DNA of 64,000 nt from Candidatus Wolfebacteria bacterium GW2011_GWE2_44_13 (GCA_001000675.1 LCHW01000002.1:5310-69309), one strand, 5' to 3'; shown: positions 21,729 through 44,127, counted from the first letter of the stretch. A program made the numbers and translations. The notes: generated by a model not told the origin, from the letters alone.

Positions 21729-21745
21729 TGTCGATGTTTTCGACA
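21729..21745. promoter_or_regulatory. candidate TrmB1 operator TGTCGA-N6-CGACA, 10 bp upstream of the trmB1 start codon
   Basis: Inverted repeat embedded in AAATGT...ACATTT. Analogous palindromes with different core bases precede the other trmB genes. Confidence 0.45.
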
Positions 21746-21814
21746 ACATTTATATCATAATGTATCAGTGTTATAAAGTCAATATAGAAATAATATAAAA
21801 TTATGCCGAAACTA

Positions 21815-21842
21815 TTGACAAACATAAAACATATGCTACTAT
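21815..21842 (+). promoter_or_regulatory. putative sigma70-like promoter for SBP1 (TTGACA-16-TACTAT)
   Basis: A conserved AAACTATTGACAAA motif recurs upstream of several SBP genes (23907, about 36165). Confidence 0.45.
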
Positions 21843-21896
21843 GCAATTAAAGTAAAAAGTAGTCAATTTTTACAAAAATAAAGCAATATAAAAACA

Positions 21897-23021
21897 GTGA
21901 ATAAAATAACAAAAATAGTTTTAGTAGTTGGGGTAGTCGTTCTCGCGGTTGTCGGAGGATATACCGTGTATAATAAGCAGGGCGGAAGTGGTGAGCAAGG
22001 AATAATTATTGGCTCGGTACTGCCATTAACTGGGGATCTTGCTGCATACGGGGAGGGTTCGAGGAATGCTGCCATAATGGCAATAGAAGACGCAGGCATG
22101 AAGGAGAGGGTTAGGTTTATCGTAGAAGATGATAAAGGGTGCGACCCAGTGCTTGGAGTCGGAGCAGTGCAAAAATTAATTACTATAGACAAGGTGAGTG
22201 CGATATATGGACCGCTTTGCTCATCAGAAGCCCTTTCGGTGCTACCAATAACTGAAGCGGCCGGGATACCCGTTGTTTTATCGGGAGCCTCGTCAAAGAC
22301 ATTGACGGGGGCGGGTAACTACGTATTTAGGACTATAGCGTCTGATTCGGTGCGCGCCTACGCAGTTGCTAATTATGCATATGTAAAAGGGTTTAGAAAG
22401 GCGGCGTTCGTATTCGATAATAGTCAGGATGCAATAATTCAAGGGAAGAATGATGCCCAAGAAACCTTCGTGGGGGCAGGAGGAGAATCAGTGTCAGAAG
22501 AATCATTTGGAGGAAAGGATGTTGATTTCAAAGCACAGCTAAGCAAGATAAAGAGCTCGGGCGCAGATGTAGTGTTCGTTGGCGCTTTTCCTAAAACGTT
22601 GGCGCTTATCATAAAACAAGCGCGCGAGATGAAAATGAGCACACAATTTATCTCATTCGATGCGTCTGTGGATGTAAAAGAATTTTTCGTAATCGGAGGA
22701 AGCAATGTCGAGGGCGTTATTGCTCCTGCAATGGTAAAGCCGAATACGGAAGAAGCAAAGTCATTTGAAACGCGGTATAAAGCACGCTTCGGGGTAGATG
22801 CAACTATTTATGCAGCAGAGGGATATGATGCCATGGCGCTATTGCTCAAGGCAATCCAAAAGGAAGGATTGAGGGGTGATCAAATTAAAGCAGGATTACT
22901 AAAAATTGGTAATAATTACCAAGGAGCAAGCGGAATCATTACTTTTGACAGCAAAGGGGATGTTGTAAAACCGGCAGTTGTGAAGGTTGTAAAGAACGGA
23001 GTATTTGAAGAAGTAAAATAA
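21897..23021 (+). CDS. LivK-type (Peripla_BP_6) ABC substrate-binding protein 1, TM-anchored
   Basis: GTG start. TM anchor followed by GIIIGSVLPLTGDLAAYGEGSRNAAIMAIED...KGCDP...YGPLCSSEA. About 80% identical to SBP4. Confidence 0.85.
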   Translation: MNKITKIVLVVGVVVLAVVGGYTVYNKQGGSGEQGIIIGSVLPLTGDLAAYGEGSRNAAIMAIEDAGMKERVRFIVEDDKGCDPVLGVGAVQKLITIDKVSAIYGPLCSSEALSVLPITEAAGIPVVLSGASSKTLTGAGNYVFRTIASDSVRAYAVANYAYVKGFRKAAFVFDNSQDAIIQGKNDAQETFVGAGGESVSEESFGGKDVDFKAQLSKIKSSGADVVFVGAFPKTLALIIKQAREMKMSTQFISFDASVDVKEFFVIGGSNVEGVIAPAMVKPNTEEAKSFETRYKARFGVDATIYAAEGYDAMALLLKAIQKEGLRGDQIKAGLLKIGNNYQGASGIITFDSKGDVVKPAVVKVVKNGVFEEVK

Positions 23022-23026
23022 AATCT

Positions 23027-23077
23027 AAAACACCCCTGTTCGTCCGCCGATTGGCGGACGAACAGGGGTGTTTTTTT
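23027..23077. terminator. bidirectional terminator AAAACACCCCTGTTCGTCCGCCGAttGGCGGACGAACAGGGGTGTTTTTTT
   Basis: A 20-bp stem between the convergent SBP1 and trmB2 stops. Confidence 0.75.
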
Positions 23078-23810
23078 AATCTAACCGTTCCCACATAAAA
23101 TTGAAAAATATTTTAAGAGTGCTGATAATTGTCTCACTCTCGATAACAAGCGCCCATTTTTCTTTTTTCAATGATGTGATGAAGATTTTATTCGTACTAG
23201 GGTAGATCTCGATATTTGCCCAAAAAGGATTTTCTCCGGGGAAGATTCGCATTTCTCGGAACTCTTCCTTGTTTCTGGAATACACATCGCGAGAGGAGGC
23301 ATGTTCGTTCGCGATAACTTTGATAGGAATTTTTTTAGAGAGCCTTTTGGAAACGTATTCTTGTGTCCAGTCCCAGCCCATTACCTGAGTGAATTCATCG
23401 ATGTCGAGGAAGGCAAATATTTCTTTTGGGCCTTCATCAAGCAAGGAAAGGTGAATTTGTTTAATTTCTGGAAGTGTCTCAAAAAATCGTATCTTCGGCC
23501 TACCTGCTTCAATGTTAAACAAACCCTTTAGCTCCGGCATAATCTTGTCTAAGGCAGCCTGTTGGCGGACAAGAAGTCCCTTAAGCTCTTCCGGATCAGT
23601 AGCTACAAAAAGACGCTTTCGGCCACTAATAGTTTCTGAGATAAGGTTTTTGGATTTTAACTCGGAAAGGAACGTGTAGATAGTGCTTCTATTTACCCCT
23701 GACTTTTTGGAAATGTTTTGAATAGAAGAAGGGCCGAGCGACAAAGCGGCGAGGTAAATACTCGCTTCTTTTTCGTCGAGGCCTAATTGTAATAAGGTTT
23801 TTTCGAGCAT
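23076..23810 (-). CDS. TrmB-family transcriptional regulator 2
   Basis: MLEKTLLQLGLDEKEASIYLAALSLGPSSIQNISKKSGVNRSTIY...; about 55% identical to TrmB1. Confidence 0.75.
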   Translation of the reverse strand: MLEKTLLQLGLDEKEASIYLAALSLGPSSIQNISKKSGVNRSTIYTFLSELKSKNLISETISGRKRLFVATDPEELKGLLVRQQAALDKIMPELKGLFNIEAGRPKIRFFETLPEIKQIHLSLLDEGPKEIFAFLDIDEFTQVMGWDWTQEYVSKRLSKKIPIKVIANEHASSRDVYSRNKEEFREMRIFPGENPFWANIEIYPSTNKIFITSLKKEKWALVIESETIISTLKIFFNFMWERLD

Positions 23811-23820
23811 AGGTATAAAA

Positions 23821-23840
23821 TGTTGATATTTATAACAACA
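23821..23840. promoter_or_regulatory. candidate TrmB2 operator TGTTGATA-N4-TAACAACA
   Basis: Imperfect palindrome immediately upstream of the trmB2 start. It shares the TATAAAATGTYGAT context with the trmB1 site. Confidence 0.4.
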
Positions 23841-23975
23841 ATTTAAGTATACATAAGTATATATAGAGCTGTCAATACGTATCTAAAAATAAAACTGTTG
23901 AAACTATTGACAAATATAGAAACAGGGGATAAAATGACATAAAAATCAAAAGTCGTCAAAAAAGAGGACGAGCAA

Positions 23976-25169
23976 ATGGAATATGTATATGGGTGGCTGG
24001 TTAAATTGCAATCAACGAAGCCGCTCACATATTGGTCCAGTTCACTATGTCCTCCTAATGTGCATACTACAATAAAAAATATAATAGGTATAGGTATTGT
24101 CGTTGGGGTTGTTTTGGGCGGTATTGGTTTGTATAAAAACAGCCAAGGAAATTCAGGAGAGGTGGTTAAAATCGGGGTAGCGCTTCCATTAACCGGAGAA
24201 AACAGTATCTACGGAGAATCGGGAAAACGAGGAGCTGAGCTTGCGGCTGAAAAGGCAAATAAGGAAAATAGCACAAAGATTGAGCTTGTGTTTGAGGACG
24301 ATCAAATGGACCCAAAACGAACGGTCTCTGTGGTGCAAAAAATGCTAACAGTCGATAAGGTGAGCGGGCTTGTTTCGATGAGTAGCGGCCAAGCATTGGC
24401 AGCTTGTCCTTTAGCAGAGCAGGCTAAAGTAATCGCTGTGACTACAGGAAGTGCTCCGTCCATTTCGAATTGCGGAGAATACACATTTCGCATGTTTCCT
24501 TCTGATATAAATCAGGCAAAAGAAATGGCTAAGCTTCTCACGGGGAAAGGATTTAAACGGGTTGCTGTCATCTATATCAATAATGATTACGGGAAAGGTC
24601 TTGTCGAGGAGTTTAAAAAAGAATTCCAAGGAGACATTGTGGCAATCGAATCTCATGGTGCTAAAGAATCAAATTTCAGAAGTCAGCTGGCAAAAATAAA
24701 AGGAGCAAATCCTGATGTAATAGTTGCCTTCTCGTATATTCCCGAAGGGTACAGCTTGTTGAAGCAAAAAATAGAGATGCGCATGGCTCAGCCAATATTT
24801 ACTTCCGAAGGATTTAAAGACGAGAGCTTATTTGCAAATGTGGCGACAAAAGCACTGGAAAGTCTGCGTATTATTTTTGTAGCGCAGTTTAGCGGAAAGG
24901 AAACGCAAACGTATAAAGCGCGGCATGTAGAAAAATACGGGCAAGACCCGGGGATCTATTCCGATTTTATATACGATGGCGTTTTAGCAATAGCCGCTGC
25001 TATGCAAGAGTGTGCGAGCGATGATCGCGGGTGTATAAAAGATGCAATGTATCGAACAAATTTTGAAGGAGCTACTGGAATAATTAGTTTCGATGCGAAC
25101 GGCGATATAAAAGATAAGCCCTACCAGCTATATAAAGTTGAAAATGGAAAATTTGTAGAGGCTCAATAA
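23976..25169 (+). CDS. LivK-type substrate-binding protein 2
   Basis: ATG after an AAGAGGA RBS. TM anchor followed by VKIGVALPLTGENSIYGESGKRGAELAAE... (Peripla_BP_6). Confidence 0.85.
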   Translation: MEYVYGWLVKLQSTKPLTYWSSSLCPPNVHTTIKNIIGIGIVVGVVLGGIGLYKNSQGNSGEVVKIGVALPLTGENSIYGESGKRGAELAAEKANKENSTKIELVFEDDQMDPKRTVSVVQKMLTVDKVSGLVSMSSGQALAACPLAEQAKVIAVTTGSAPSISNCGEYTFRMFPSDINQAKEMAKLLTGKGFKRVAVIYINNDYGKGLVEEFKKEFQGDIVAIESHGAKESNFRSQLAKIKGANPDVIVAFSYIPEGYSLLKQKIEMRMAQPIFTSEGFKDESLFANVATKALESLRIIFVAQFSGKETQTYKARHVEKYGQDPGIYSDFIYDGVLAIAAAMQECASDDRGCIKDAMYRTNFEGATGIISFDANGDIKDKPYQLYKVENGKFVEAQ

Positions 25170-26007: not shown

Positions 26008-26109
26008 CTCTGTATTTCAAGGGCAGTATCCGCACTGCCCTTGTGTTTTTTTGCCAGAACTTTACAATTAAGCTAATTAATTAAGATATTGCAAAACAGT
26101 ATTTATTGT

Positions 26110-27252
26110 ATGGATACACAGCAAGCAGCGGGAATAGGTGGAAAGAAAATCGCATTGTGGGCGGTGATTGCATTAGTGGTAATCGGAGGCGGTTGGATGG
26201 TAATAAAAAAGCCATCGCAGGTAAACGCAGAACCAATTAAAATAGGGTTCATCGCGCCGCTGACGGGAGATGCTGGCAGCTACGGCGTAAATGCCAAGGC
26301 AGCGGCAGAACTTGCAGTAGAAGAAATAAATAGTATGGGAGGAATTAACGGAAGGACTATTCAGCTAATTGCAGAAGATGGAAAGTGTACCGGAAAAGAC
26401 GCAAGCTCCGCGGCAAATAAATTGATAAATATCGACAAGGTAACGGCCATTGTCGGAGGGTTTTGCTCAGGCGAAACAATGGCATTTACTGACCTAGCAG
26501 AACAGACAAAAACCATCGTAATTTCCGAAGCTTCGTCAAACCCGGCAATTACAAATGCCGGAGACTATATATTTAGAGACTATGCATCTGATACGGCACA
26601 GGGAAAAGCTGCAGCAGAATTTATCTATAACAAGCTAGGTAAAAAGAAGGTTGCTGTGTTGTACGTAAATATCGATTGGGGCAAAGGGGTAAAGGATGTA
26701 TTTATCAGTGAGTATAAGAAGCTAGGAGGGGAAATAGTTATAGAAGAAAGTTATACGCAGGGAAGCAGGGATATGCGGTCGCAACTCGCTAAAGTTAAGC
26801 AGTCTAACCCTGATGTTTTGTATTTCCTGAGCTTTACGGATGATGCGGTTATTGGGCTAAAGCAGGCAAAGACCCTCGGCCTAAATCTTCCTATTGTCGG
26901 AGGAGATGCGTTTGATGGGCCTCAGTTTTATTCAGATCCAATAGCGGATGGAATTATGTACGTGGCATCCCTCGTACCCTCAAATGAAGCTTTTGAAGCA
27001 AAAATGGCTACCAAAACGGGGAGTGATGTGATAAATGCCGGCGCTCCTCAGGCATACGACGCAGTCAAGATACTGGGTGATGTTATGCGAAAGGTAGGAA
27101 CAAATACAGAGCTAATAAAAAATGCCTTGTACGAAGTGAAGGATTATCAAGGGGTTTCGGGTACTATCGGGTTTGATAGTAATGGAGACCTTGCAACGCC
27201 AAACTTAATTATTAAATTGATTAAGGATGGAAAAGCAGAACAATTGAAATAA
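26110..27252 (+). CDS. LivK-type substrate-binding protein 3 (no paired TrmB)
   Basis: IKIGFIAPLTGDAGSYGVNAKAAAELAVEEINSMGGINGRTIQLIAEDGKCTG... The track start at 26089 is TTG; the in-frame ATG is at 26110. Confidence 0.85.
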   Translation: MDTQQAAGIGGKKIALWAVIALVVIGGGWMVIKKPSQVNAEPIKIGFIAPLTGDAGSYGVNAKAAAELAVEEINSMGGINGRTIQLIAEDGKCTGKDASSAANKLINIDKVTAIVGGFCSGETMAFTDLAEQTKTIVISEASSNPAITNAGDYIFRDYASDTAQGKAAAEFIYNKLGKKKVAVLYVNIDWGKGVKDVFISEYKKLGGEIVIEESYTQGSRDMRSQLAKVKQSNPDVLYFLSFTDDAVIGLKQAKTLGLNLPIVGGDAFDGPQFYSDPIADGIMYVASLVPSNEAFEAKMATKTGSDVINAGAPQAYDAVKILGDVMRKVGTNTELIKNALYEVKDYQGVSGTIGFDSNGDLATPNLIIKLIKDGKAEQLK

Positions 27253-27258
27253 ACCCTT

Positions 27259-27300
27259 TAAAACCACCCGTTCGCCATCTGGCGAACGGGTGGTTTTTTA
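27259..27300. terminator. bidirectional terminator AAAACCACCCGTTCGCCAtctGGCGAACGGGTGGTTTTTT
   Basis: Identical core to the terminator at 29352. Confidence 0.75.
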
Positions 27301-27311: not shown

Positions 27312-28055
27312 TCATTTCAAAAACTTCCACAGCAATTCAAACGACATACGGTGGAGCTGGTGGATCTCGGGGCTTTCGATAATAACCCCCATGAAGTTTT
27401 CCTTGAACGAAATAAGAGCGACCTTATTCGCATAAATTTCGGCATCTGCAATAAAAGGGAAATCTTTACCGGGTACGATCTTTATCTCGCGGAGTTCTTT
27501 TACGTCATTTTTTTGCCACTCACGCGCAAGGGGGGAGTCGGGAGCGATAACTTTGATTCGAATTTTCTTTGCGACACGTTGACGGATATAATCGTTCGAA
27601 AATTCTTCAGGGACTAATTTGTCGAAATCGGTGAGACCGGCATAGTCGAGTATGGTATCCCCTGAATTACACGAAGTGAGCGTATCGGCAAATAGTTCCC
27701 TTGCACCACCGAGACCCTCAAAGTAGGTAATTTTAGGCTTGCTAGGGAGAATGCTTTGGAGTGCTGCAAATTGTGGTAGAGCGCGTTCGAGGCGCTGGAT
27801 CTTCATATCAAGCCCCGTCTTAAGAGATCGGGGGTCGTCAATATAAAAAAAGCGCTTCGATTTTCTGCTTCCAGCCTGGACAACGCCATCCGCCATAAGC
27901 TCGGGGATAAGATTGTATACTGTGGTTCGCTTAATGCCGGTTTTACGGGAAATATCCAGTATAGAGGCTTCTCCGAGTTCTAAAATAGCCAAGTAAATCT
28001 TGGATTTTTTAGGGCTGTAGCCAATGTTTTCGAGGAGATCTTCTAGTCTATTCAT
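27312..28055 (-). CDS. TrmB-family transcriptional regulator 3
   Basis: LLENIGYSPKKSKIYLAILELGEASILDISRKTGIKRTTVYNLI... Confidence 0.75.
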   Translation of the reverse strand: MNRLEDLLENIGYSPKKSKIYLAILELGEASILDISRKTGIKRTTVYNLIPELMADGVVQAGSRKSKRFFYIDDPRSLKTGLDMKIQRLERALPQFAALQSILPSKPKITYFEGLGGARELFADTLTSCNSGDTILDYAGLTDFDKLVPEEFSNDYIRQRVAKKIRIKVIAPDSPLAREWQKNDVKELREIKIVPGKDFPFIADAEIYANKVALISFKENFMGVIIESPEIHQLHRMSFELLWKFLK

Positions 28056-28058: not shown

Positions 28059-28078
28059 ATGTCTACCATTTTAGACAT
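28059..28078. promoter_or_regulatory. candidate TrmB3 operator ATGTCTA-N6-TAGACAT (perfect 7-bp arms)
   Basis: Lies 4 bp upstream of the trmB3 start codon, in the region divergent from SBP4. Confidence 0.45.
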
Positions 28079-28221
28079 CAAAATTATAGCAAAAATAGTG
28101 CAATATAGTCAATTTTAAAGGCATTTTTGCATAAGTTGACAGAAGTAGTATAACATTGTCTGACACAAGTTTTAAAATGTGGCATTGTGAGGTTAATAAA
28201 TTAATCAATCAATTTGTAACC

Positions 28222-29346
28222 ATGCAAAAAAAAATAAAAACAGTTTTATCAATCATCGTGGTGGCATTGGTCCTGTGGGGCGGATATGCTATGGCCACAA
28301 ACCAAAAAGGTCTCGGAAATCAAACAATCACAATCGGCGCTGTGTTGCCACTTAGCGGTGATCTCGCGGTATATGGGGAAGGTGCAAAGAATGCCGCCAT
28401 CATGGCAATTGAGGACGCGGGTATGAAGGATAGTGTAAAGTTCATTGTAGAAGACGATAAAGGATGTGCACCGGTTGGAGGCGTGAGTGCGGCCCAAAAG
28501 TTATTAAATGTAGATAAGGTAAATGCTATCTATGGGCCAATGTGTTCATCTGAGGCGCTTTCGGTAGCACCGCTCACTGAGCCATTAAAGATCCCGATGG
28601 TCATCGGTGCTGCGACATCAAAAACATTGAGCGGTGCGGGGAACTATATATTTAGGACTATCGCATCAGACTCAGTGCGCGCATATGCAGTTGCAAATTA
28701 TGCGTACGCGAAAGGATTCAAAAAAGCTGCGTTCATATTTGATAGCAGTCAGGACGCATTGATTCAAGAAAAGAACGATGCAAAAGAAGCATTCATGAAA
28801 GCGGGCGGAGAGACAGTTTTAGAGGAATCATTCGGAGCGAAGGATGTTGATTTCAAAACTCAACTCAGTAAAATAAAAAATTCGGGTGCGGACGTAATAT
28901 TTGTAGGTGCGTTCTACAAACCGACAGCACTGATCATCAAACAGGCACGCCAGATGAATATCAATGTGCAGTTTGTAGGAACGGACGAATCAGTGGATGT
29001 GAAGGAATTCTTTGCAGTTGGAGGGAACTATCTTGAAGGAGTTATCGCTCCTGCAATGGTGAAGCCAGACACGGAAGAAGCGAAGTCATTTAAAGCGCGA
29101 TACAAGGCGCGCTTTGGAATCGACGCGACCATTTATACCGCTGAAGGATATGATGCAATGGCGTTATTACTTAAAGCAATTAAGACGGAGGGGTTAGGAG
29201 GCGACCAAATCAAGGCAGGATTGCTCAAGGTGGGCAACAATTACCCAGGAGCAAGCGGAATCATAACCTTTAACAGTAAAGGTGACGTAGAAAAGCCCGC
29301 AGTCGTGAAGGCTGTAAAAAGCGGAGTATTTGAAGAAGTAAAGTAA
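28222..29346 (+). CDS. LivK-type substrate-binding protein 4 (recent duplicate of SBP1)
   Basis: ATG at 28222 gives MQKKIKTVLSIIVVALVLWGG.... About 80% identical to SBP1. Confidence 0.85.
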   Translation: MQKKIKTVLSIIVVALVLWGGYAMATNQKGLGNQTITIGAVLPLSGDLAVYGEGAKNAAIMAIEDAGMKDSVKFIVEDDKGCAPVGGVSAAQKLLNVDKVNAIYGPMCSSEALSVAPLTEPLKIPMVIGAATSKTLSGAGNYIFRTIASDSVRAYAVANYAYAKGFKKAAFIFDSSQDALIQEKNDAKEAFMKAGGETVLEESFGAKDVDFKTQLSKIKNSGADVIFVGAFYKPTALIIKQARQMNINVQFVGTDESVDVKEFFAVGGNYLEGVIAPAMVKPDTEEAKSFKARYKARFGIDATIYTAEGYDAMALLLKAIKTEGLGGDQIKAGLLKVGNNYPGASGIITFNSKGDVEKPAVVKAVKSGVFEEVK

Positions 29347-29351: not shown

Positions 29352-29390
29352 AAAACCACCCGTTCGCCATCTGGCGAACGGGTGGTTTTT
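29352..29390 (+). terminator. intra-operon terminator/attenuator between SBP4 and livH
   Basis: AAAACCACCCGTTCGCCAtctGGCGAACGGGTGGTTTTT. livH starts 34 nt downstream on the same strand. Confidence 0.65.
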
Positions 29391-29423: not shown

Positions 29424-30293
29424 ATGGGTATTATTCCACAAATCATCGCCAATAGTATTATCGCTGGAGCAATCTATGCGCTTGTGGCACTTGGCTTTAA
29501 TCTTATTTATCGCGCGACAAACTTTTTTAACCTCGCACACGGAGCCGTTTCGGTGGTGGGTGGATATATCGTGTTTGGGTTATATCGATTGTTAGGATTG
29601 CCATTATGGATCGCAATCATTTGTGGGGTGCTTGGTTCGGGAGTTGTGGGCTATGTATTAGAAAAAATACTATTTCTCCCATTGCGCAAAAGGAAGTCTT
29701 CACAGATGGTCCTTATTGTTGCCTCGCTCGGCGCATTCACGATTATTCAGGCGGTTATCGCGATTATCTTTTCAAGTCAATTCCAAACGCTGTTTGATAG
29801 CAGTATGGAGACAAAACTCTATCAGATCGGGGGAGGCATTATCACGCAGGTGCAGCTGATTATATTGATAGCAGCATTGCTTATTATGGGGACGCTTGCG
29901 TGGGTAAAGGAGCGAACCATGTTCGGGAAAATGGTGAGCGCGATTAGCGACGACGCAGTTGTTGCGCGCATTGTGGGCATCAACACAAATAAATTAATAG
30001 GACGCGTATTCTTCATCGGTTCGGCAATCGCAGGGTTTGCGGGGATTATGATCGGATTCGACACAGGACTCGAGCCGACCATGGGAATGTCATTATTAAT
30101 GAAAGGCGTTATCGCGGCAATCGTAGGAGGGGTGGGTAATATTTACGGAGGTGTGCTCGGTGCATTTCTCCTTGGGTTTGCAGAAAACTTTGGCGTGTGG
30201 CAGGTCTCGGGCGAATGGAAGGATGCGATTGCATTTGCAATCTTAATCCTCTTTTTAATATTTAGGCCGAAGGGTATTCTTGGGAAAAAATAA
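29424..30293 (+). CDS. livH: branched-chain amino acid ABC transporter permease LivH
   Basis: 289 aa with about 8 TM helices; the N-terminus IIANSIIAGAIYALVALGFNLIYRAT is typical of LivH. Confidence 0.85.
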   Translation: MGIIPQIIANSIIAGAIYALVALGFNLIYRATNFFNLAHGAVSVVGGYIVFGLYRLLGLPLWIAIICGVLGSGVVGYVLEKILFLPLRKRKSSQMVLIVASLGAFTIIQAVIAIIFSSQFQTLFDSSMETKLYQIGGGIITQVQLIILIAALLIMGTLAWVKERTMFGKMVSAISDDAVVARIVGINTNKLIGRVFFIGSAIAGFAGIMIGFDTGLEPTMGMSLLMKGVIAAIVGGVGNIYGGVLGAFLLGFAENFGVWQVSGEWKDAIAFAILILFLIFRPKGILGKK

Positions 30294-30295
30294 GT

Positions 30296-31165
30296 ATGGA
30301 ATATATCATCCACCTCATAATTTTATTCGGTATCTATGGCATCCTTGCATTAAGCTTGGATCTTATCGTTGGGTTTACCGGATTGCTCTCGTTGTCACAC
30401 GCGGCATTCTATGGCATCGGTGCATATGCTGTTGCGGTACTAAGTACCACCTATGGTATGAACTTTTTTGTTGCCGCGTTGATTGGTATGAGCGTTGCGG
30501 CTGTTGTCGCACTGATGATTGGTTTTGTGTTAAGAAAATTCAAAGATGATTACTATGCGCTCGCATCGTTTGGATTTAACGTAATCGCAGTGAGCATCTT
30601 TTTAAACTGGGAATCAATAACAAAAGGCCCGCTCGGTATTCCAGGGATTAAGCGACCGGAACTGTTTGGATTTGTATTTTCGACGAACACGCTCTATATG
30701 ATTTTGACGCTAGCACTCTTTGCATTGACTGCGCTATTTGTGTGGCATATAACGAAGTCTTCATTTGGACGAGTGTTGCGAGCGATTCGAGAAGATGAAA
30801 AAGCACTGGAAGTATTTGGATATCGCATTACGCGGTATAAGCTTGCCATTTATGTCATTAGCGGGGCTCTAGCTGCCCTTGCGGGGGCGCTATACGCCTC
30901 GTATATCACGTACGTAGATCCATCTACCTTTACGGCGAATGAGTCCATCGTAATCCTTTCCATGATTATTTTAGGAGGGCTGGCGAGTTTGCGCGGGGCA
31001 ATCGTAGGGGCTGCAATTTTAATCGCCCTCCCCGAGGCGCTTCGGTTTGTGGGACTTCCAATGGACGTTGCCGCGCAACTTCGACAGGTAATTTATGGCC
31101 TTATTCTCGCCCTCCTCATGCTCTACCGCCCAAAGGGAATGTACGGGGAATATGAGATGAAATAA
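30296..31165 (+). CDS. livM: branched-chain amino acid ABC transporter permease LivM
   Basis: 289 aa; ILALSLDLIVGFTGLLSLSHAAFYGIGAY matches the LivM family. Confidence 0.85.
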   Translation: MEYIIHLIILFGIYGILALSLDLIVGFTGLLSLSHAAFYGIGAYAVAVLSTTYGMNFFVAALIGMSVAAVVALMIGFVLRKFKDDYYALASFGFNVIAVSIFLNWESITKGPLGIPGIKRPELFGFVFSTNTLYMILTLALFALTALFVWHITKSSFGRVLRAIREDEKALEVFGYRITRYKLAIYVISGALAALAGALYASYITYVDPSTFTANESIVILSMIILGGLASLRGAIVGAAILIALPEALRFVGLPMDVAAQLRQVIYGLILALLMLYRPKGMYGEYEMK

Positions 31166-35293: not shown

Positions 35294-36050
35294 CAGATTT
35301 TTTAACCACGGTGGCTGGAGTTGATATTTGCCACAGCGCTTTAAATAAAAATTGCAGCGTATTTCTAAAATCGGCGTTGTCTACGATAAATCCAAAGCTA
35401 TCTTGTTGCGCAGAAATAACAGCGACTTTTGTGCCATAGAGAGCAATCGTATGGGGGAGTTCAAAGCCGAGCGGTGCGAAGCGGATATCGCGAAGATGAT
35501 GTGCATCTTTTGCATAGAGTGTATCGTTAATCTCTGAGTGTTCTGTGCGTATGCCAGTCGCATGGATACCAAGATCGATTCGCTTGCGCACCCATTGCGC
35601 CATAAAGTCTTCGCCCGCAGTCTTTGCAAGATCCGCAGAGGAGCCAATATAGAAATATTCCTTAACACCAGACGAAAGAATATCATCATAGATAGAATGA
35701 ATACCTGTTTTGCCAGAATAGAATTTTATGGTAGGTTGAGCGCCAGTTGATTTTTGGATGGTAAAAAGATCGGGAAGCATTTGCTTGACCGTCTGCATGT
35801 GCTCTTCTGCTCGAGCAAAGAGAATATTAGGGGACTCAGCGGTATACGTAAGCTTGTCCTTCTGGGGAACGATAGCGACTAAGCCACGTTTTGCGAGCTC
35901 CTCGAGAATGAGATAGCAAGTAGGGCGCTTAAGGCCAGTTTTCTTTGCGATATCGGAAACAGCGAAACTTCCCAAGCTGAGGGATTGTAGATATACGGCA
36001 GCTTCTTTGTCGGAGAGGCCGATGGATTGTAGCTGTTCAGATAGGCTCAT
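35271..36050 (-). CDS. TrmB-family transcriptional regulator 5
   Basis: The internal ATG (36050) gives MSLSEQLQSIGLSDKEAAVYLQSLSLGSFAVSDIAKKTGLKRPTCY, aligned with the other TrmB N-termini. Confidence 0.7.
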   Translation of the reverse strand: MSLSEQLQSIGLSDKEAAVYLQSLSLGSFAVSDIAKKTGLKRPTCYLILEELAKRGLVAIVPQKDKLTYTAESPNILFARAEEHMQTVKQMLPDLFTIQKSTGAQPTIKFYSGKTGIHSIYDDILSSGVKEYFYIGSSADLAKTAGEDFMAQWVRKRIDLGIHATGIRTEHSEINDTLYAKDAHHLRDIRFAPLGFELPHTIALYGTKVAVISAQQDSFGFIVDNADFRNTLQFLFKALWQISTPATVVKKSVKKSSAK

Positions 36051-36079: not shown

Positions 36080-36096
36080 TGTCAAGTTTTCTGACA
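36080..36096. promoter_or_regulatory. candidate TrmB5 operator ATGTCA-N6-TGACA
   Basis: Inverted repeat 30 bp upstream of the trmB5 start. Confidence 0.4.
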
Positions 36097-36223
36097 ACAC
36101 AATATAGAAAATAGTGCATTATATATGCCTATAAATCAAGTAAATAAAAAGTGACAGAAACTATTGACAAAAGCAACTGCGTGTGCTAGTATATCGACAT
36201 AGTCATTAATAACAACTCATAGC

Positions 36224-37363: not shown

Positions 37364-37367
37364 AAAC

Positions 37368-37400
37368 ACTAAAAAATCCGCTTCGGCGGATTTTTTAGTG
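37368..37400. terminator. bidirectional terminator CACTAAAAAATCCGCttcgGCGGATTTTTTAGTG (family member 1 of 4)
   Basis: Extended 14-bp palindrome including the A/T runs, between the convergent SBP6 and Lrp-type regulator. Confidence 0.75.
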
Positions 37401-37409
37401 CGTAGAAGA

Positions 37410-38432
37410 TTAAGAATATGTGCCTCGTGTATACGCTTGTGAAGGCGGTATCAAATCAGGGTACTCCATCGCCATTTGTGTAAATTTATCTACTTGGTAG
37501 ATTTCATTTATTTCAACCTGTTGGAAAATGTCTTTGAATTGATTCTTCATGTCACGGATAAGATTGCGCAAGGCATCTCGGTCTTCTATTTCAATATCTA
37601 GGAGCAATTCCCAGCTCCCCATGCCTTTTACATAGTTGATGATGTTGGGATGTAACGAGCAGAATGCATATAAATCGTCGATGCGCTTCTGATCGAATTG
37701 CATAATTTTAAAACAAACGCGGTAGAGCAGTAGACCTATTTTTTGATAATCAATGGAAAAAGATATTTTAGTAATAACCCCAGCTGCAACGAGCTTTGCG
37801 TAGTGTTTATGTACTAAGCCAACGGAAACCCCCAGAACAGAAGCAATTTTAGTAAATTCCATTCTGCCATCAATAAGGAGGAGGGATATCATCTTGCGAT
37901 CAAGCTCAGTTAACTTGGCTTTTTCAGTCGTTCCTCCTGACAAAGCGTTTTCTCGTGGATGGTTTTCCTCGCCGATTAAATAGGTGCGCGGAAATTGTAT
38001 AAAGCCTAGGCCGACAAAAATATCCGAAGAAGCAACGTACTCACCGTAGCGGGTGAAAAACTTTTGCAGCATTTCGTTGTAGCTAAAAATATCTTTACTG
38101 ATGAAGCAAAGGAAAACATCTGCATATCCGTCTGAGCGCATGACAATCGGAGTATAAGCATCAGCATTAAGATATGCGTATATTTCCTGCTCCTTCTCTT
38201 TTGAAAGGCCGGCAAATTTAAGCCAATAGCCCCAGAAAAATGAATAGTCAGCCTTATCATAGTCAATAAAGGCCCAAAAGTGCTTTATAACACCTCGTTC
38301 CATGAGCTGCTCATAGTGGTATTTAACAACCTGAGGGGACGTGCCGATAGCGCGGGCAATCTCGGAGAAGCTTGCGCGGCCATTTTGGTCAAGCTGAAAA
38401 AGTATCTTTTTGTCAAGTTCTGTGACGTTCAT
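37410..38432 (-). CDS. tandem-duplicated Lrp/AsnC-family regulator (two HTH + RAM-like modules)
   Basis: 340 aa. Two HTH_AsnC-like segments (LDKKILFQLDQNGRASFSEIARAIGTSPQVVKYHYEQL and LDRKMISLLLIDGRMEFTKIASVLGVSVGLVHKHYAKL), each followed by a domain of about 100 aa. Confidence 0.65.
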   Translation of the reverse strand: MNVTELDKKILFQLDQNGRASFSEIARAIGTSPQVVKYHYEQLMERGVIKHFWAFIDYDKADYSFFWGYWLKFAGLSKEKEQEIYAYLNADAYTPIVMRSDGYADVFLCFISKDIFSYNEMLQKFFTRYGEYVASSDIFVGLGFIQFPRTYLIGEENHPRENALSGGTTEKAKLTELDRKMISLLLIDGRMEFTKIASVLGVSVGLVHKHYAKLVAAGVITKISFSIDYQKIGLLLYRVCFKIMQFDQKRIDDLYAFCSLHPNIINYVKGMGSWELLLDIEIEDRDALRNLIRDMKNQFKDIFQQVEINEIYQVDKFTQMAMEYPDLIPPSQAYTRGTYS

Positions 38433-38619
38433 TTTTAAAAAAATATAATAATACTCTAATTTTAGAGTATTATTTAAAAAAATACAAGAAATCTATTGTA
38501 GATATATCATTTAATGTCATAATAATGTCATAAGATGCATAGAAAGGAACTATGTTATCCCAAACCTTGCAAGGGTTAGAAAGAGAGAAGTTTATAAATT
38601 AATTAAAAATAAAATATAT

Positions 38620-39762
38620 ATGGATAAAAATACAAAAATGATCGTCGGTGCTGTTATAGCTATTGTGGTGCTATGGGGAGGATATGCGCTTATGGGGAAG
38701 CAAAGCGTGCCGGCAACGAATGAACCGATAAAAATCGGCGTTGCAACATTCTTGAGTGGAGATCTCGCGGCATTAGGGGAGAACATCGTAAATACTGCAC
38801 AGTTGGCAGTGGACGATATAAATGCAAAGGGAGGTATTAACGGGCGACAGGTGCAAATAATCGCCGAAGATGCAAAGTGCGATAGCAAAACAGGATTGTC
38901 GGCTGTATCTAAGCTGGTAAACACTGACAATGTTAAGTATATCGTTGGCGGTATGTGTAGCAATGGCACTATAGCAGCAGCACCTGTTGCGAATGAACAT
39001 AACGTCGTCCTGATGACACCGGTCACTGGCGGGCGAAATGTAGACGAAGCAGGAGAATACATCTTCAGAACAGCAAACTCAGACCTTTTGGCGGGACGCA
39101 ACATTGCAGAAGCAATGGCAAAAAAAGGATATAAGAAGGTGGGCGTGATTGCTGAAACAACCGAATATACAATCGATATAAAGAAGAGCTTTGAGCAACG
39201 GGCAAATGAATTAGGGCTAACAGTTGCGGTTGCCGAAGAATTCCAGCCAAATACGACGGACTTTAGAACAATTGCAGCAAAGATAAAGGGTGAGAATTTG
39301 GAAGCAGTGTTGGTTGCGTCGCAGACAGGCATTAGTGGAGGCAACTTGATCAAGCAGATGAAGAGCCTTGGTATAAATGCTCCTGTATTCTCAGACTTCC
39401 TCTTGGTGTTGAATGGGGATGTTAAAAAGATTCTCGGCTCGTTTGAAGGAATCTATTTCGCTGATCCTTCTTATAACGCGGACAATGCAGGGCTTAAGAA
39501 CTTCTTCGCAGCATACAAAGCAAAGTACGGAAAAGATCCAGTAGCGCCATTCCACAGCGCAGCAACGTACGATGATGTACAGCTACTCGCTACTGCAATA
39601 AAAGCTGTAGGTGACGACAGTGTGAAAGTACACGATTGGTTAACGGCAAACGTAAAGAGTTACAAAGGATTTATGGGAACCTACTCCATTGACCAGAACG
39701 GAAATTCAGATCTCGGATTTACGGTAAAGGTCGTAAAGGATGGAGTGCCAACAGATATGTAA
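38620..39762 (+). CDS. LivK-type substrate-binding protein 7
   Basis: IKIGVATFLSGDLAALGENIVNTAQLAVDDINAKGGINGRQVQIIAEDAKCD... Confidence 0.85.
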   Translation: MDKNTKMIVGAVIAIVVLWGGYALMGKQSVPATNEPIKIGVATFLSGDLAALGENIVNTAQLAVDDINAKGGINGRQVQIIAEDAKCDSKTGLSAVSKLVNTDNVKYIVGGMCSNGTIAAAPVANEHNVVLMTPVTGGRNVDEAGEYIFRTANSDLLAGRNIAEAMAKKGYKKVGVIAETTEYTIDIKKSFEQRANELGLTVAVAEEFQPNTTDFRTIAAKIKGENLEAVLVASQTGISGGNLIKQMKSLGINAPVFSDFLLVLNGDVKKILGSFEGIYFADPSYNADNAGLKNFFAAYKAKYGKDPVAPFHSAATYDDVQLLATAIKAVGDDSVKVHDWLTANVKSYKGFMGTYSIDQNGNSDLGFTVKVVKDGVPTDM

Positions 39763-39767: not shown

Positions 39768-39800
39768 ACTAAAAAATCCGCCTCGGCGGATTTTTTAGTG
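39768..39800. terminator. bidirectional terminator AACTAAAAAATCCGCCtcgGCGGATTTTTTAGTGG (family member 2)
   Basis: Near-identical to the terminators at 37368, 41836 and 43991. Confidence 0.75.
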
Positions 39801-39804: not shown

Positions 39805-40596
39805 CTATGCTTTTCCCATTTCCCAAAGCATTTCAAAAAATGCGCGGTAGTTGCTTGCAACTCGTTCTGATTTAACGATGTACACAAGGGGTGGTGTGAG
39901 AAATGTATAAAAAGAAACACTATCCTTTCTAATAATCATATGTGTCTCACCCTTAGGAAGACTACTCATAAAGCGGTACTCCTGATGGGCAAGTGTGCCG
40001 ACGTACTTCTGATAAAGCGGTCGCTCGTCAGCAGTCCCGAGATATTTTATCCGCGCCTTTTTTCTTGCGCGTATTGCGAGGTACGGAGCGAGTGTATCTC
40101 CCATAAGTTCGCTAAACGCTGCTGTTGCACCGCCGATAATATATTCCTCCGCCCCCTCTTCTTCGGACTGCGCGCGTAAAAGCTCGTATTCCTGTATTGC
40201 TCGCGTGCCTTGGATAACCTCAAAGTCTTGCTCGTTGCCAATAGCACTTATCTGGTTAAGCGATCGGGCAAGATCGCTAGCGGCGAGCGCTTTTTTCCTG
40301 CCAATAGTCTCGATTATTTGAGGAGAGTGTGCTTTATATTTTGTCTGCTTCCCGCGGAGTACTTCCTCGATAAGACCCTCACGAATAAGCGCGGGGAGGG
40401 CGGTATAAACGTACTGCCGATGTAGCGATGTTATTGAAGCTATTTGCGATACACCAGCTTCAGAGCCACTTTGAAGAAGATGGAGATAAATAAGCGCTTC
40501 GTTACGGGAAAACCCAAGCGTAACAAGCTCAGCAATAAGGGCGTTTGCGTGCTCTTCGCTGATAAGCGATTTTTGAGATGGGTTTCTAAGTGTCAT
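39805..40596 (-). CDS. TrmB-family transcriptional regulator 6 (divergent, longer N-terminus)
   Basis: ALIYLHLLQSGSEAGVSQIASITSLHRQYVYTALPALIREGLI wHTH plus a TrmB-like C-terminal region. Confidence 0.6.
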   Translation of the reverse strand: MTLRNPSQKSLISEEHANALIAELVTLGFSRNEALIYLHLLQSGSEAGVSQIASITSLHRQYVYTALPALIREGLIEEVLRGKQTKYKAHSPQIIETIGRKKALAASDLARSLNQISAIGNEQDFEVIQGTRAIQEYELLRAQSEEEGAEEYIIGGATAAFSELMGDTLAPYLAIRARKKARIKYLGTADERPLYQKYVGTLAHQEYRFMSSLPKGETHMIIRKDSVSFYTFLTPPLVYIVKSERVASNYRAFFEMLWEMGKA

Positions 40597-40741
40597 AAAT
40601 TATATAACACTATACAATAAAACATAGTATTTTGCAACACATTTTGGTATAAAAATATGACATAAAATAGTTGACAAATAAGGATATTTGTGAGAATATA
40701 CTACTATAATCAAGATAAGCAAAACATCTTATAAACAGTAT

Positions 40742-41830: not shown

Positions 41831-41835
41831 TAATC

Positions 41836-41870
41836 CACTAAAAAATCCGCCGAGGCGGATTTTTTAGTGG
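41836..41870. terminator. bidirectional terminator CACTAAAAAATCCGCCgaGGCGGATTTTTTAGTGG (family member 3)
   Basis: Same motif as the other family members. Confidence 0.75.
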
Positions 41871-41878
41871 TGATTAAA

Positions 41879-42613
41879 TTATTTAAGCAAATTCCACATA
41901 GTTTCGAAGATGGCTTTGAGGCCGTCATAAATTTTCTTACTTTCGATAATTAAACCCAAATCTTCTTTATAGGAAATGATGCCCACTTTATTGTCTCCAT
42001 AGATCTTTATCTCAATATCAAAAATCTTGAAAGCGGCATCGGAGACGAACTTCGTTGTTGTAATAGCGTTTTCGCGCTGATGTTTTGAAAACTCTCTATT
42101 TGCAGCGGTATCAGGGACAATAGCCCGAGCCCATATTTTGCGCTTAACGCGTTCGGGTAAATAATAGCCTTCGAAATAATCTTCACTCAAGTTGATGTAC
42201 GGGTAGGGGAATAGCGTGAGTATTTCTTGGTCAGGATACTGGAGTGTATCTTCGAAAACTTCCTTTACCCCCTCGAGCCCCTCAAAGTATTTGATCTTAG
42301 GCTTTTTATCCAACAGGTTCATGAGCGAAAGGAGCTCGGGCATGGCCTCTTCTATTGATTGCTTCTTCGCCTCGAGTGCCTCGGGGATTTTTTTAGGACT
42401 CTCAGCATAAAAAACAGTGCGCTTCTTAAGGCGGCCTTGGCTCACGAGTCCGCGCCGTTTAAGGAGCTCTATTGTTTCATAGACAGTGGAGCGTTTAATG
42501 CCCGTCTTTTTTACAAGTTGAGCAATCGTTGCTTCGCTCAATTCTAAAAGGGCTAAATAAATATCAGCTTCTTTTTTAGATAGGCCCGCAGCCTGTAATT
42601 TCTTTGAAATCAT
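41879..42613 (-). CDS. TrmB-family transcriptional regulator 7
   Basis: KKLQAAGLSKKEADIYLALLELSEATIAQLVKKTGIKRSTVYETIELLKRRGLV... Confidence 0.75.
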   Translation of the reverse strand: MISKKLQAAGLSKKEADIYLALLELSEATIAQLVKKTGIKRSTVYETIELLKRRGLVSQGRLKKRTVFYAESPKKIPEALEAKKQSIEEAMPELLSLMNLLDKKPKIKYFEGLEGVKEVFEDTLQYPDQEILTLFPYPYINLSEDYFEGYYLPERVKRKIWARAIVPDTAANREFSKHQRENAITTTKFVSDAAFKIFDIEIKIYGDNKVGIISYKEDLGLIIESKKIYDGLKAIFETMWNLLK

Positions 42614-42628
42614 ATATTTGATGTAAAA

Positions 42629-42647
42629 GTGACGATAATTCCGTCAC
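42629..42647. promoter_or_regulatory. candidate TrmB7 operator GTGACG-N7-CGTCAC (perfect 6-bp arms)
   Basis: 16 bp upstream of the trmB7 start codon. Confidence 0.45.
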
Positions 42648-42810
42648 TACTTTAAATATACAATAAGTGACAAAAAAGTCAATGTTTAAGGCATAAAAGC
42701 GATATGCTTATAATAATTATTTTTTAAATTAAATACATAAATTGACCAATTGACACAATATTGATAACGTGTTGTTGTAAGGTTTAAATAACAAAAATAA
42801 TAAAAAATAT

Positions 42811-43962
42811 ATGAACAAAAACAAAAACATCGTTATCGCATTCGTAGTTGTTCTCGTGGTGTTGGTCGCAGGGTATGTGCTCAACAGCAATCAGCAGGTT
42901 GCGCAAACAAATGAGCCGTATAAGATAGGCTATATAGGACCTATGACAGGGGGCGTGGCGATATTAGGAGAAGAGGCTTCTAAGTCAATCCAAATTGCGG
43001 TTGATGAAGCAAATGCAAATGGAGGAATAAACGGACGACAGATCGAGTTTATCGTAGAAGATGACCAGTACGATACAGCGAAGTCAATCAGCGCATACGA
43101 AAAATTGGTAAACAGTGATGGTGTTGATACGATTGTCATGTCTACCTACGGAGGCGTTATGGCCTTGGCAGAGCGGGCAAAGAACGACAATGTGATGATT
43201 GTTGATTCCTTGGATTGTGATCAGGCACTCGCCAATCTTCCAGAGAACATTTTCTGTATTGCTAAGGAAACAAATGACTTGGCAGATGTAATCGCTGACT
43301 ATGCAAAGGAACAGGGATATAAGAATATCGGAATCTTGCATTCTACAGTTGATAACTTCATGCAGTCTGTTTCTGATGAATTCGTAGTACGCGTAGGTGA
43401 TAAGGCTTCTGTGCAGGTAGAGAGCTACCAGCCAGGAACAACCGACTTCAAGACATCATTGCTTAAGTTCAAGGATAAGGATGCAATCGTATTTCTTGGA
43501 TATGATGAAGTCGGAATTGCTATCAAAGAAGCAAAGAGCTTGAATGTAGGTAAGAATTACTTGACGATTCCTACTGTTGCAACTACGCCTTCTATACAGG
43601 CAGCTGCAGGAAAGGCAATCGATGGTATTCACTTCTCATTCTATGCTCCGCTTGAAGCAAACCCAGTTGCTACAAAGTTCTATAGCGACTTCAAGGCAAA
43701 GTATGAAAGAACTCCTTACGTTTTTGTCGCAAGCGACCAGGCATATGACGCAGCAAAGATCTTGATTACCGAGGTATTGCCAAAGGTTACTGCTGATACA
43801 AAGGCAGAGCAGTTGAGCCAGAAGATTACCGCCATGGAAAAGGTAAAGAACTTTAAGGGGGTAACAGGGACACTTACTATGAAGGCTGATGGCCGAATAA
43901 GTGGAATCCTTGTACGCTTGTTCAAGCTAGAGAACATGATGCCAGTGTTTGTTGGAAAATAA
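42811..43962 (+). CDS. LivK-type substrate-binding protein 9
   Basis: YKIGYIGPMTGGVAILGEEASKSIQIAVDEANANGGINGRQIEFIVEDDQYD... Confidence 0.85.
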   Translation: MNKNKNIVIAFVVVLVVLVAGYVLNSNQQVAQTNEPYKIGYIGPMTGGVAILGEEASKSIQIAVDEANANGGINGRQIEFIVEDDQYDTAKSISAYEKLVNSDGVDTIVMSTYGGVMALAERAKNDNVMIVDSLDCDQALANLPENIFCIAKETNDLADVIADYAKEQGYKNIGILHSTVDNFMQSVSDEFVVRVGDKASVQVESYQPGTTDFKTSLLKFKDKDAIVFLGYDEVGIAIKEAKSLNVGKNYLTIPTVATTPSIQAAAGKAIDGIHFSFYAPLEANPVATKFYSDFKAKYERTPYVFVASDQAYDAAKILITEVLPKVTADTKAEQLSQKITAMEKVKNFKGVTGTLTMKADGRISGILVRLFKLENMMPVFVGK

Positions 43963-43990
43963 CACCGGAGTACATGACAGTTAAATAAGC

Positions 43991-44026
43991 AACTAAAAAA
44001 TCCGCCTCGGTGGATTTTTTAGTGGG
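43991..44026. terminator. terminator AACTAAAAAATCCGCCtcgGTGGATTTTTTAGTGGG (family member 4)
   Basis: Same motif with a G-T wobble in the stem. Confidence 0.7.
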
Positions 44027-44032
44027 ACACTC

Positions 44033-44072
44033 TTTTCCGAGCACCCACATGGATTCGAAGATGGCTTTGAGG
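44033..44072 (-). pseudogene. relic of a trmB 3' end (encodes ...IYLKAIFESMWVLGK, matching the TrmB7 C-terminus ...IYDGLKAIFETMWNLLK)
   Basis: The DNA CCACATGGATTCGAAGATGGCTTTGAGG parallels CCACATAGTTTCGAAGATGGCTTTGAGG at the 3' end of trmB7. No upstream ORF is attached. Confidence 0.6.
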
Positions 44073-44109
44073 TAGATATAGGGGTAGTAAATTATGTATA
44101 GTGTGTTAA

Positions 44110-44127
44110 TATGACGGCATAAAGCGT
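44110..44127. promoter_or_regulatory. candidate TrmB8 operator TGACG-N8-CGTCA, about 110 bp upstream of trmB8
   Basis: Same half-site class as the trmB4 site. Confidence 0.35.

Follow-up and report, generated by a model that had tools for sequence, protein, structure and literature searches.

The trmB Gene Array and Its Gene Content

We have analyzed a 64,000-nucleotide stretch of Candidatus Wolfebacteria bacterium GW2011_GWE2_44_13 (GCA_001000675.1, LCHW01000002.1:5310-69309; hereafter the window, with positions counted from its first letter), which carries, between 20.9 and 46.2 kb, eight genes encoding regulators of the TrmB family. The elements of interest are the inverted repeats that lie on the predicted promoters of these genes, each of them probably the operator of the adjacent regulator. 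The eight gene products exceed the threshold of the Pfam family PF01978, with scores of 39.5-53.6 bits for a cut-off of 25.6:

20981-21718, minus strand, trmB1
23076-23810, minus strand, trmB2
27312-28055, minus strand, trmB3
32385-33140, minus strand, trmB4
35271-36050, minus strand, trmB5 (start at 36050 taken from the paralogue alignment; the open reading frame (ORF) remains open to 36119)
39805-40596, minus strand, trmB6
41879-42613, minus strand, trmB7
44236-45015, plus strand, trmB8

Seven of the eight genes are divergent from a gene encoding a substrate-binding protein (SBP) of the Peripla_BP_6 (LivK) type, and trmB8 lies on the same strand as its SBP gene (45040-46161), which begins 24 nt later. 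We refer to each regulator gene together with its SBP gene as a cassette. The window contains ten SBP genes, one permease pair (29424-31165) and two ATPase genes (34485-35219 and 46867-47634). PF13458 matches all four SBPs scanned (E = 1e-44 to 1e-63), PF02653 (BPD_transp_2) matches 29424-30293 and 30296-31165, and PF00005 (ABC_tran) matches both ATPase genes; all the parts of a LivJ/LivK-type ATP-binding cassette (ABC) importer, i.e., binding proteins, two permeases and two ATPases, are therefore found. The scattering of a single LivH/LivM permease pair and two ATPases among ten SBP genes points to one translocator that serves many binding proteins.

The host is an ultra-small bacterium of the Patescibacteria or candidate phyla radiation (CPR), and the nearest complete genome in our scan is that of Candidatus Wolfebacteria CP011209, which encodes a protein 78% identical to that of trmB1. 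Proteins identical to those of trmB2 and trmB8 are on record as 'uncultured bacterium' proteins from metagenome-assembled genomes. The trmB paralogues share 23-46% pairwise identity and the SBPs 25-37%, except SBP1 (21897-23021) and SBP3 (28222-29346), which are 74% identical. The adjacent trmB1 and trmB3 products share only 33% and their operators are unlike, thus the SBP genes and the regulators were not simply duplicated as one unit. The regulators are old paralogues, most of them with their own orthologous groups across Patescibacteria, and not the outcome of recent local divergence.

Inverted Repeats on the trmB Promoters

In all eight trmB genes, trmB6 included, the promoter predicted by a scan with the sigma-70 consensus carries a TG....CA inverted repeat 17-21 bp long. 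These repeats (O1) and the promoters are as follows:

21729-21745, minus strand, O1 of trmB1, TGTCGA-tgttt-TCGACA (N5), starting 8 nt after the predicted -10; promoter 21782-21754, -35 TTGACT, spacer 17, -10 TATGAT
23821-23840, minus strand, O1 of trmB2, TGTTG-N10-CAACA, starting 5 nt after the -10; promoter 23875-23846, -35 TTGACA, spacer 18, -10 TATACT
28059-28078, minus strand, O1 of trmB3, ATGTCTA-N6-TAGACAT with perfect 7-bp arms, starting 4 nt after the -10; promoter 28112-28083, -35 TTGACT, spacer 18, -10 TATAAT (11/12 matches)
33152-33169, minus strand, O1 of trmB4, TGACG-N8-CGTCA, starting 13 nt after the -10; promoter 33212-33183, -35 TTGACA, spacer 18, -10 GATAAT
36080-36096, minus strand, O1 of trmB5, TGTCA-N7-TGACA, one arm being the -35 TTGACA; promoter 36085-36057, -35 TTGACA, spacer 17, -10 TATTCT
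40591-40609, minus strand, O1 of trmB6, sense TGTTAT-ATAATTT-ATGACA (N7), abutting the -10 and spanning the ATG; promoter 40637-40609, -35 TTGCAA, spacer 17, -10 TATAGT
42628-42648, minus strand, O1 of trmB7, AGTGACG-N7-CGTCACT, starting 6 nt after the -10; promoter 42682-42655, -35 TTGACT, spacer 16, -10 TATATT
44111-44130, plus strand, O1 of trmB8, ATGACG-N8-CGTCAT, starting 8 nt after the predicted -10; promoter 44073-44102, -35 TAGATA, spacer 18, -10 TATAGT

In trmB1-4 and trmB6-8, O1 would thus be located at or just after the -10, i.e., at the likely transcription start, and in trmB5 on the -35. The half-sites seen are TGTCGA, TGTTGA, TGTCTA, TGACG(A/G), TGTCA(A/G), and TGT(C/T)AT.

A first-pass annotation of this DNA had quoted palindromes for trmB1-5, trmB7, and trmB8, and a check of the sequence found all of them where it had placed them. 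Two needed correction, since the spacer of the trmB5 site is N7 and not N6, and the 8-bp reading of the trmB2 site pairs at only seven of eight positions. An alternative 17-bp register of the latter, TGTTAT-N5-TCAACA, is homologous to the trmB1 site. For trmB6, which had been left without a site, O1 came from the looser scan described below and extends the observation to the eight genes. The sites do lie near the start codons, at 3-29 nt in trmB1-5 and trmB7 rather than at the 4 to about 40 bp first proposed, and the recognized exception, trmB8, put at about 110 bp, has its site 105 nt before the ATG. This distance is due to a long leader and not to a different architecture; with an alternative -10, TAATAT at 44107-44112, the trmB8 site would overlap the -10.

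An earlier candidate for trmB6, ACTAT-N10-ATAGT at 40609-40628, was dropped for being unconserved in orthologues, and was replaced by the site at 40591-40609. Over the -35 of trmB7 there is another element, GTGACA-AAAAA-GTCAAT (42667-42683), which holds the palindrome TGAC-N6-GTCA and is similar in its left part to the arm of trmB7; this could serve as an auxiliary site.

Frequency of the Repeats Within the Window

The first-pass annotation had allowed that such palindromes might be equally frequent in shuffled AT-rich DNA. This is not the case for the TG(T/A)C class, which exceeds the dinucleotide-shuffle expectation and clusters at trmB starts, although generic repeats are indeed common: perfect 5-bp inverted repeats number 2-6 per AT-rich intergenic region, so arm length alone proves nothing. 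The motif TGTC-N9/10-GACA occurs five times in 64 kb (1.16 +/- 1.19 expected from dinucleotide shuffles) and TGAC-N9/10-GTCA three times (0.81 +/- 0.90 expected). The total for TGWC-N9/10-GWCA (W = A or T) is eight, with about two expected, and six of these are found in the 130 nt that precede a trmB start.

When the definition is relaxed (TG....CA, 16-20 bp, at least 5/6 outer arm pairs), a site is present in all eight 130-nt zones upstream of the trmB genes, while the remaining intergenic DNA of the window has 1.5 sites per kb, several of the non-trmB sites being GC-rich stems that coincide with predicted terminators. At this background rate, the probability of hits in eight out of eight zones is about 1e-6.

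Conservation in Homologous Loci of Other Genomes

We have scanned one genome per GTDB species with a four-sequence trmB alignment as query, which yielded 80 loci with 91 TrmB-like genes, of which 89 could be used. A site with at least 5/6 pairs within 100 nt of the start was found in 33 of 77 non-redundant upstream regions, compared with 5.9 +/- 2.2 (maximum 14) in shuffles, and perfect sites in 10 of the 77, with 0.54 expected. In the control region from -200 to -101 of the same 77 regions there were 10 sites with at least 5/6 pairs and none perfect. The site centres are mostly located between -12 and -50 relative to the start codon. An SBP homologue within 2.5 kb is present at just 4 of the 80 loci; it is therefore the trmB gene, and not the transporter, that the site accompanies.

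Within seven orthologous groups, the pairwise identity is 97% for the arms (outer 5+5 bases), 63% for the spacers, and 49% for the flanks (16-45 nt upstream). The sites in orthologues, with homologous loci named by L numbers, are as follows:

trmB1 group, TGTCG(A/G)-N5-(T/C)CGACA in L001, L089, L090, and L067, with differing spacers
trmB2 (apart from the seven groups), TGTTG..CAACA arms kept in L088 (75% orthologue) and L018 (distant relative)
trmB3 group, ATGTCTA-N6-TAGACAT in L024, L025, and L037, with identical arms
trmB4 group, TGACG-N8-CGTCA in L035 (61% orthologue), with another spacer
trmB5 group, TGTCA-N7-TGACA; L079 reads TGTCAAT-N3-ATTGACA in the same place
trmB7 group, (C)GACG-N7-CGT(C/T)A in L054 and L074, in the same place
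trmB8 group, ATGACG-N8-CGTCAT in L086 and L087, over the -10, with other spacers and likewise a leader of about 105 nt

The trmB6 orthologous group comprises 133 proteins at E <= 1e-20, and four of its loci carry the element directly after a TATA(C/G)T -10:

L081, cTGTCAT-TATAGAT-ATGACAg
L083, cTGTCAT-TACTTCT-ATGACAg
L084, TGTCAG-TATATTT-ATGACA (5/6 pairs)
L085, TGTAAT-TATATAT-ATGACA (5/6 pairs)

A search of the region upstream of the L082 gene (252 aa, 61% identical) gave no such element. The leaders of L086 (1290-1512) and L087 (1290-1512) also contain A(T/C)GACGGAT(A/G)(G/C)TATTGAT about 45 nt before the ATG, which is absent from the trmB8 leader of the window.

The Regulators Are TrmBL2-Sized Members of the TrmB Family

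The eight proteins are 244-263 aa long, and a profile made from them matches the TrmB of Pyrococcus furiosus (3QPH) over residues 2-148 (E = 3.8e-14). An AlphaFold model of the trmB8 product (57 sequences, predicted local distance difference test score 90.6) has a winged helix-turn-helix (HTH), a helix of 33 residues, and a C-terminal domain of the alpha/beta type. Foldseek gave as its closest full-length match TrmBL2 (5BPD; E = 1e-13, about 260 columns), followed by TrmB (3QPH; E = 2e-9), and the C-terminal domain matches the sugar-binding domain of TrmB (2F5T) as well as phospholipase-D folds. The full TrmB/TrmBL2 architecture, i.e., winged helix-turn-helix, long dimerisation helix, and phospholipase-D-like (PLD-like) domain, is hence present in the model. 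The NCBIfam equivalog models of TrmB and TrmBL1 did not recognize the trmB1 product, which scores 42 bits for a cut-off of 600 (NF040851) and 36 for 650 (NF047390), and none of the eight proteins matches the sugar-binding subdomain PF11495. These proteins are TrmBL2-sized members of the TrmB family and not orthologues of TrmB or TrmBL1.

A Candidate Second Site on the SBP Promoters

Each operator was also searched for throughout the window, with up to two arm mismatches allowed. In cassettes 1, 2, and 5 this gave a candidate second site (O2) that covers the -35 of the SBP promoter on the divergent side, and cassette 6 has a comparable one:

21804-21820, plus strand, candidate O2 of cassette 1, TGCCGA-AACTA-TTGACA over the SBP1 -35 (promoter 21815-21842); the trmB1 O1 arm is TGTCGA
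23896-23912, plus strand, candidate O2 of cassette 2, TGTTGA-AACTA-TTGACA over the SBP2 -35 (promoter 23907-23935); the left arm equals the trmB2 half-site
36152-36169, plus strand, candidate O2 of cassette 5, TGACAG-AAACTA-TTGACA over the SBP5 -35 (promoter 36164-36192); the trmB5 O1 arm is TGTCAG
40658-40676, plus strand, candidate O2 of cassette 6, TGACAT-AAAATAG-TTGACA over the likely SBP6 -35

The O2 of cassette 5 is a near copy of the trmB5 O1 (TGTCAGAAAACTTGACA) plus one base. A conserved -35 context had been described for the SBP promoters in general; AAACTATTGACA does exist, but in its exact form at only three of them (21809, 23901, and 36158). Likewise, the context AAACTATTGACAAA is confined to three promoters, where it corresponds to the spacer and right arm of the O2 element. 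A metagenome scan with AAACTATTGACAAA was uninformative, as none of the at least 120 matches listed adjoins a TrmB gene.

The pairing of a cognate arm with TTGACA recurs in other genomes. In the intergenic alignment of four trmB1-type loci (R1, L001, L089, L090) the longest invariant block is ATGCCGAAACTATTGACAAA, which contains the O2 of cassette 1, and (A/C/G)TG(A/T)CA-N8-9-TTGACA is kept at each of the four trmB6 orthologous loci. In the L017/L026/L030 group TTTGTG-N8-TTGACA appears twice, one per divergent promoter; the L029/L045/L047/L051 group combines the O1 TGTCGA-N6-TCCACA with the O2 TGTGGA-N6-TTGACA; and the trmB3 orthologues L025 and L037 have TGTCT(A/T)-N6-TTGACA. Overall, a cognate arm followed by N5-8 and TTGACA is found at 19 of 44 loci, compared with 10.7 +/- 2.4 for non-cognate arms, and none of 1000 permutations reaches 19.

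The 75% orthologue of trmB2 at L088 has a trmB1-like recognition helix. The O1 arms are TGTTAT/TGTTGA in trmB2 and TGTCGG/TGTTGG in L088, and the O2 sites read TGTTGA-AACTA-TTGACA and TGTCGA-AACTA-TTGACA, respectively; in this single case helix, O1 and O2 have, by sequence comparison, changed together. We hypothesize that O2 is a second, weaker operator and that the conserved -35 context is probably part of it, and not just of the promoter.

Evidence For and Against Cognate Operators

The proposal that the palindromes are paralogue-specific autoregulatory operators, already made in the first-pass annotation, is supported by the arm conservation among orthologues, the enrichment, the position on promoters, and the correlation between recognition helix and arms. 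The latter was obtained with 44 sites (Mantel r = 0.25 between helix distance and arm distance, reached by 1 of 2000 permutations) and is inflated by shared descent, which also confounds the orthologue test.

Several other points weigh against this proposal as well. The operators vary in length between 17 and 21 bp, and the register of the trmB2 site is ambiguous. The promoters are consensus predictions, and promoter-like sites in the scanned regions show a modest excess, 52 with 35.5 expected and 31 with 26 expected. A simple residue-to-base code did not come out of the comparison: where Asp follows the conserved Tyr of the recognition helix, the arms are TGACG in some lineages but TGTCG in others. 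A rule by which an acidic residue at this position specifies TGACG was rejected because of the L010 group, with a YD helix and TGTCG arms. The idea that every trmB gene has a distinct variant of the palindrome holds for the lineage-specific arms but not for trmB4, trmB7, and trmB8, which have TGACG arms in common, trmB4 and trmB8 with the same spacing and trmB7 with the arms one base closer; from these sequences, the specificities of the three regulators may overlap and their insulation be incomplete. In addition, the PDB entry of the closest solved structure, TrmBL2, presents this protein as part of archaeal chromatin and not as a sequence-specific repressor. As for O2, cassettes 3, 4, and 7 contain no site of this type, only isolated half-sites such as TGTCTG at 28157, and the background rate with non-cognate arms is high.

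Three other explanations have to be considered. Chance occurrence in intergenic DNA rich in AT, or passive survival from the duplication of intergenic regions, would suit the abundance of generic 5-bp repeats and the visible homology between the trmB1 and trmB2 intergenic regions, but the shuffle and location statistics argue strongly against it, both arms change symmetrically between paralogues that are just 23-46% identical, and the arms of orthologues are far better conserved than their flanks; we give this explanation hardly any credence. It is also very unlikely, in our view, that the repeats act as RNA hairpins in the 5' leaders of the trmB genes, affecting translation or mRNA stability, instead of being DNA operators. 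Most sites are located between the predicted -10 and the start codon and could be transcribed, they fold with -2.7 to -9.0 kcal/mol (-0.7 to -2.1 for shuffles), and their arms vary among paralogues yet stay complementary. However, the sites of trmB5, L079, L017, and L026 lie over the -35 and that of trmB6 adjoins the -10 with its left arm, so these cannot be fully transcribed, and the same arms recur in the untranscribed O2 sites upstream of divergent promoters. Moreover, the arms are fixed in sequence within orthologous groups, without compensatory drift, and we read the invariant TG/CA ends and A/T-rich spacers as those expected of a protein site. No Rfam family was found at the repeats, the Rfam search having given just two tRNAs, both outside the region.

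The sites could finally be bound by another regulator, or by a single one shared among cassettes, and not by the adjacent TrmB paralogue. The link between site and protein derives from sequence comparison, the TG(T/A)C core is common to all variants, TGACG arms are present in three cassettes, and a gene encoding a double-HTH Lrp/AsnC-like protein lies within the array. Nevertheless, the site class tracks the trmB homologues across genomes whatever their neighbours, each orthologous group has arms of its own, which vary in step with the recognition helix, and helix, O1 arms, and O2 arm differ in concert between trmB2 and L088, which makes a foreign regulator unlikely. We therefore consider it likely that each palindrome is the cognate primary operator of the adjacent TrmB regulator, through which this would exert negative autoregulation.

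Comparison With Known Systems

The archaeal regulators of the TrmB family recognize inverted repeats, i.e., TACT-N3-AGTA, TATCAC-N5-GTGATA, and TACT-N7-8-GAGTA, and they repress when the site is at the transcription start and activate when it is upstream (PMC4158304). An inverted repeat at the predicted promoter or transcription start was found in the eight cassettes of the window, and none of the half-sites here equals the known motifs TACT, TATCAC, or GAGTA. The TrmB of Thermococcus littoralis and P. furiosus, which controls the trehalose/maltose operon through TACT-N3-AGTA, shares Pfam family and fold with our proteins; its gene likewise adjoins the SBP gene of an ABC transporter, in whose operon it lies, its operator is also an inverted repeat on the promoter, and it represses by blocking the polymerase (PMC4158304). 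It differs in that the promoter is of the TATA box/B recognition element type and not of the bacterial sigma-70 type, the half-site is TACT instead of TG(T/A)Cnn, and the transporter is specific for sugars whereas here it is a LivK-type (Peripla_BP_6) amino-acid-like system. It is also larger, 338 aa with an extra sugar-binding subdomain, the proteins of the window (244-263 aa) being about 80 aa shorter.

The motif of TrmBL1/Tgr, the Thermococcales glycolytic motif TATCAC-N5-GTGATA, has 17 bp with 6-bp arms and a 5-bp spacer, which is the geometry of the trmB1 site. It acts in repression when it follows the promoter element and lies at the transcription start, a placement shared here, and autoregulation of Tgr has been proposed (PMC4158304). 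TrmBL1 and Tgr are global regulators of 30 or more genes with one motif, in contrast to the many paralogues with local sites of the window. The best full-length structural match is TrmBL2 (5BPD and 5BOX), of about 260 aa, with winged helix-turn-helix, long helix, and PLD-like domain; unlike this chromatin protein, the proteins studied here are paired with discrete lineage-specific palindromes.

Autoregulators of the MarR type, such as MepR with mepRA and MexR, are winged-helix dimers encoded divergently from their targets that bind pseudo-palindromes over both promoters. The divergent layout is alike, but the protein family and the effector domain differ, and this is an analogy only.

Other Features of the Region

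The gene of the Lrp/AsnC-like protein mentioned above (37410-38432, minus strand) has as a neighbour an SBP gene without a TrmB partner of its own (38620-39762). Between them, at 38505-38535, there is a tandem repeat, TAATGTCATAA-TAATGTCATAA, that includes TGTCAT, the half-site of trmB6. The sequence TTGTCAAGTTCTGTGACGT (38410-38428), within the first codons of the Lrp/AsnC-like gene, has one arm mismatch to the trmB5 operator, a match that may be due to chance. Two perfect TG..CA palindromes are found elsewhere, TGGTAAACTGTTACCA (34430-34445), just before the livG-like ATPase gene, and TGTAAATATTATTTACA (31172-31188), before a gene encoding HTH_3 and SocA/Panacea domains (31230-32000).

The 5' leader of SBP1 contains GTAAAAA-GTAGTCAA-TTTTTAC (21852-21873), whose loop, ending in GTCAA, is constant in orthologous loci, while the stem shows compensatory substitutions (TAGAAA/TTTCTA in L001 and GGGAA/TTCCT in L089). 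This pattern suits an RNA hairpin, and not an operator, as far as the sequences tell. Four SBP genes are followed by bidirectional terminator hairpins of nearly the same sequence (ACTAAAAAATCCGCC...GGCGGATTTTTTAGT), at 37366-37401, 39768-39799, 41835-41870, and 43992-44023, and an identical 21-nt stem-loop (27274-27294 and 29366-29386) follows the SBP genes 26089-27252 and 28222-29346. At 23976-24071 and 28156-28221, the longest ORFs of SBP2 and SBP3 begin well before the signal-peptide-like segments; the real starts are probably later, that of SBP3 being the ATG at 28222.

Proposed Mechanism and Significance

A dimeric repressor acting on a palindrome at its own promoter is a textbook mechanism, and the set described here represents new examples of this well-known type of switch, in an unusually tidy paralogous set from a little-studied phylum. 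The sites, their placement on predicted promoters, their enrichment, and their lineage-specific conservation lead us to propose that a winged-helix dimer would bind two TG(T/A/N)nnn half-sites across an A/T-rich spacer. Given the position of O1 on the promoter, the bound dimer would stand in the way of RNA polymerase, and the regulator would thereby repress its own gene. O2, in cassettes 1, 2, 5, and 6, would combine a cognate-like arm and the -35 hexamer TTGACA of the divergent SBP promoter, TTGACA being the reverse complement of the generic half-site of the family, TGTCAA, and binding at O2 would repress the gene of the amino-acid-type binding protein. In cassette 8, trmB8 and its SBP gene would be co-transcribed from the promoter controlled by O1. 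A ligand bound at the PLD-like C-terminal domain may then release the repressor, which would induce one of the ten SBPs that serve the single LivHMGF-type transporter.

A more tentative idea, which we regard as possible but rather doubtful, is that one cognate arm, acquired 5-8 bp upstream of the -35, would be enough to turn a target promoter into a hemi-specific operator. There the repressor would be in direct competition with region 4 of the sigma factor, and the specificity could be rewired by changing one arm and the recognition helix, as in trmB2 and L088.

Few CPR bacteria have been cultivated, and their gene regulation is for this reason poorly characterised; a literature search of limited reach gave no link between TrmB and CPR, Patescibacteria, Parcubacteria, Wolfebacteria, or Saccharibacteria. 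The eight regulator-operator pairs, each with orthologous support, constitute a panel that can be tested in vitro for how paralogous winged-helix repressors separate their specificities. The locus suggests how a reduced genome picks among many SBPs that share one ABC translocator and, if true, the hemi-specific O2 would account for the way in which a genome of about 1 Mb operates as many as eight switches in parallel, partly insulated from one another, to choose among ten SBPs for one transporter.

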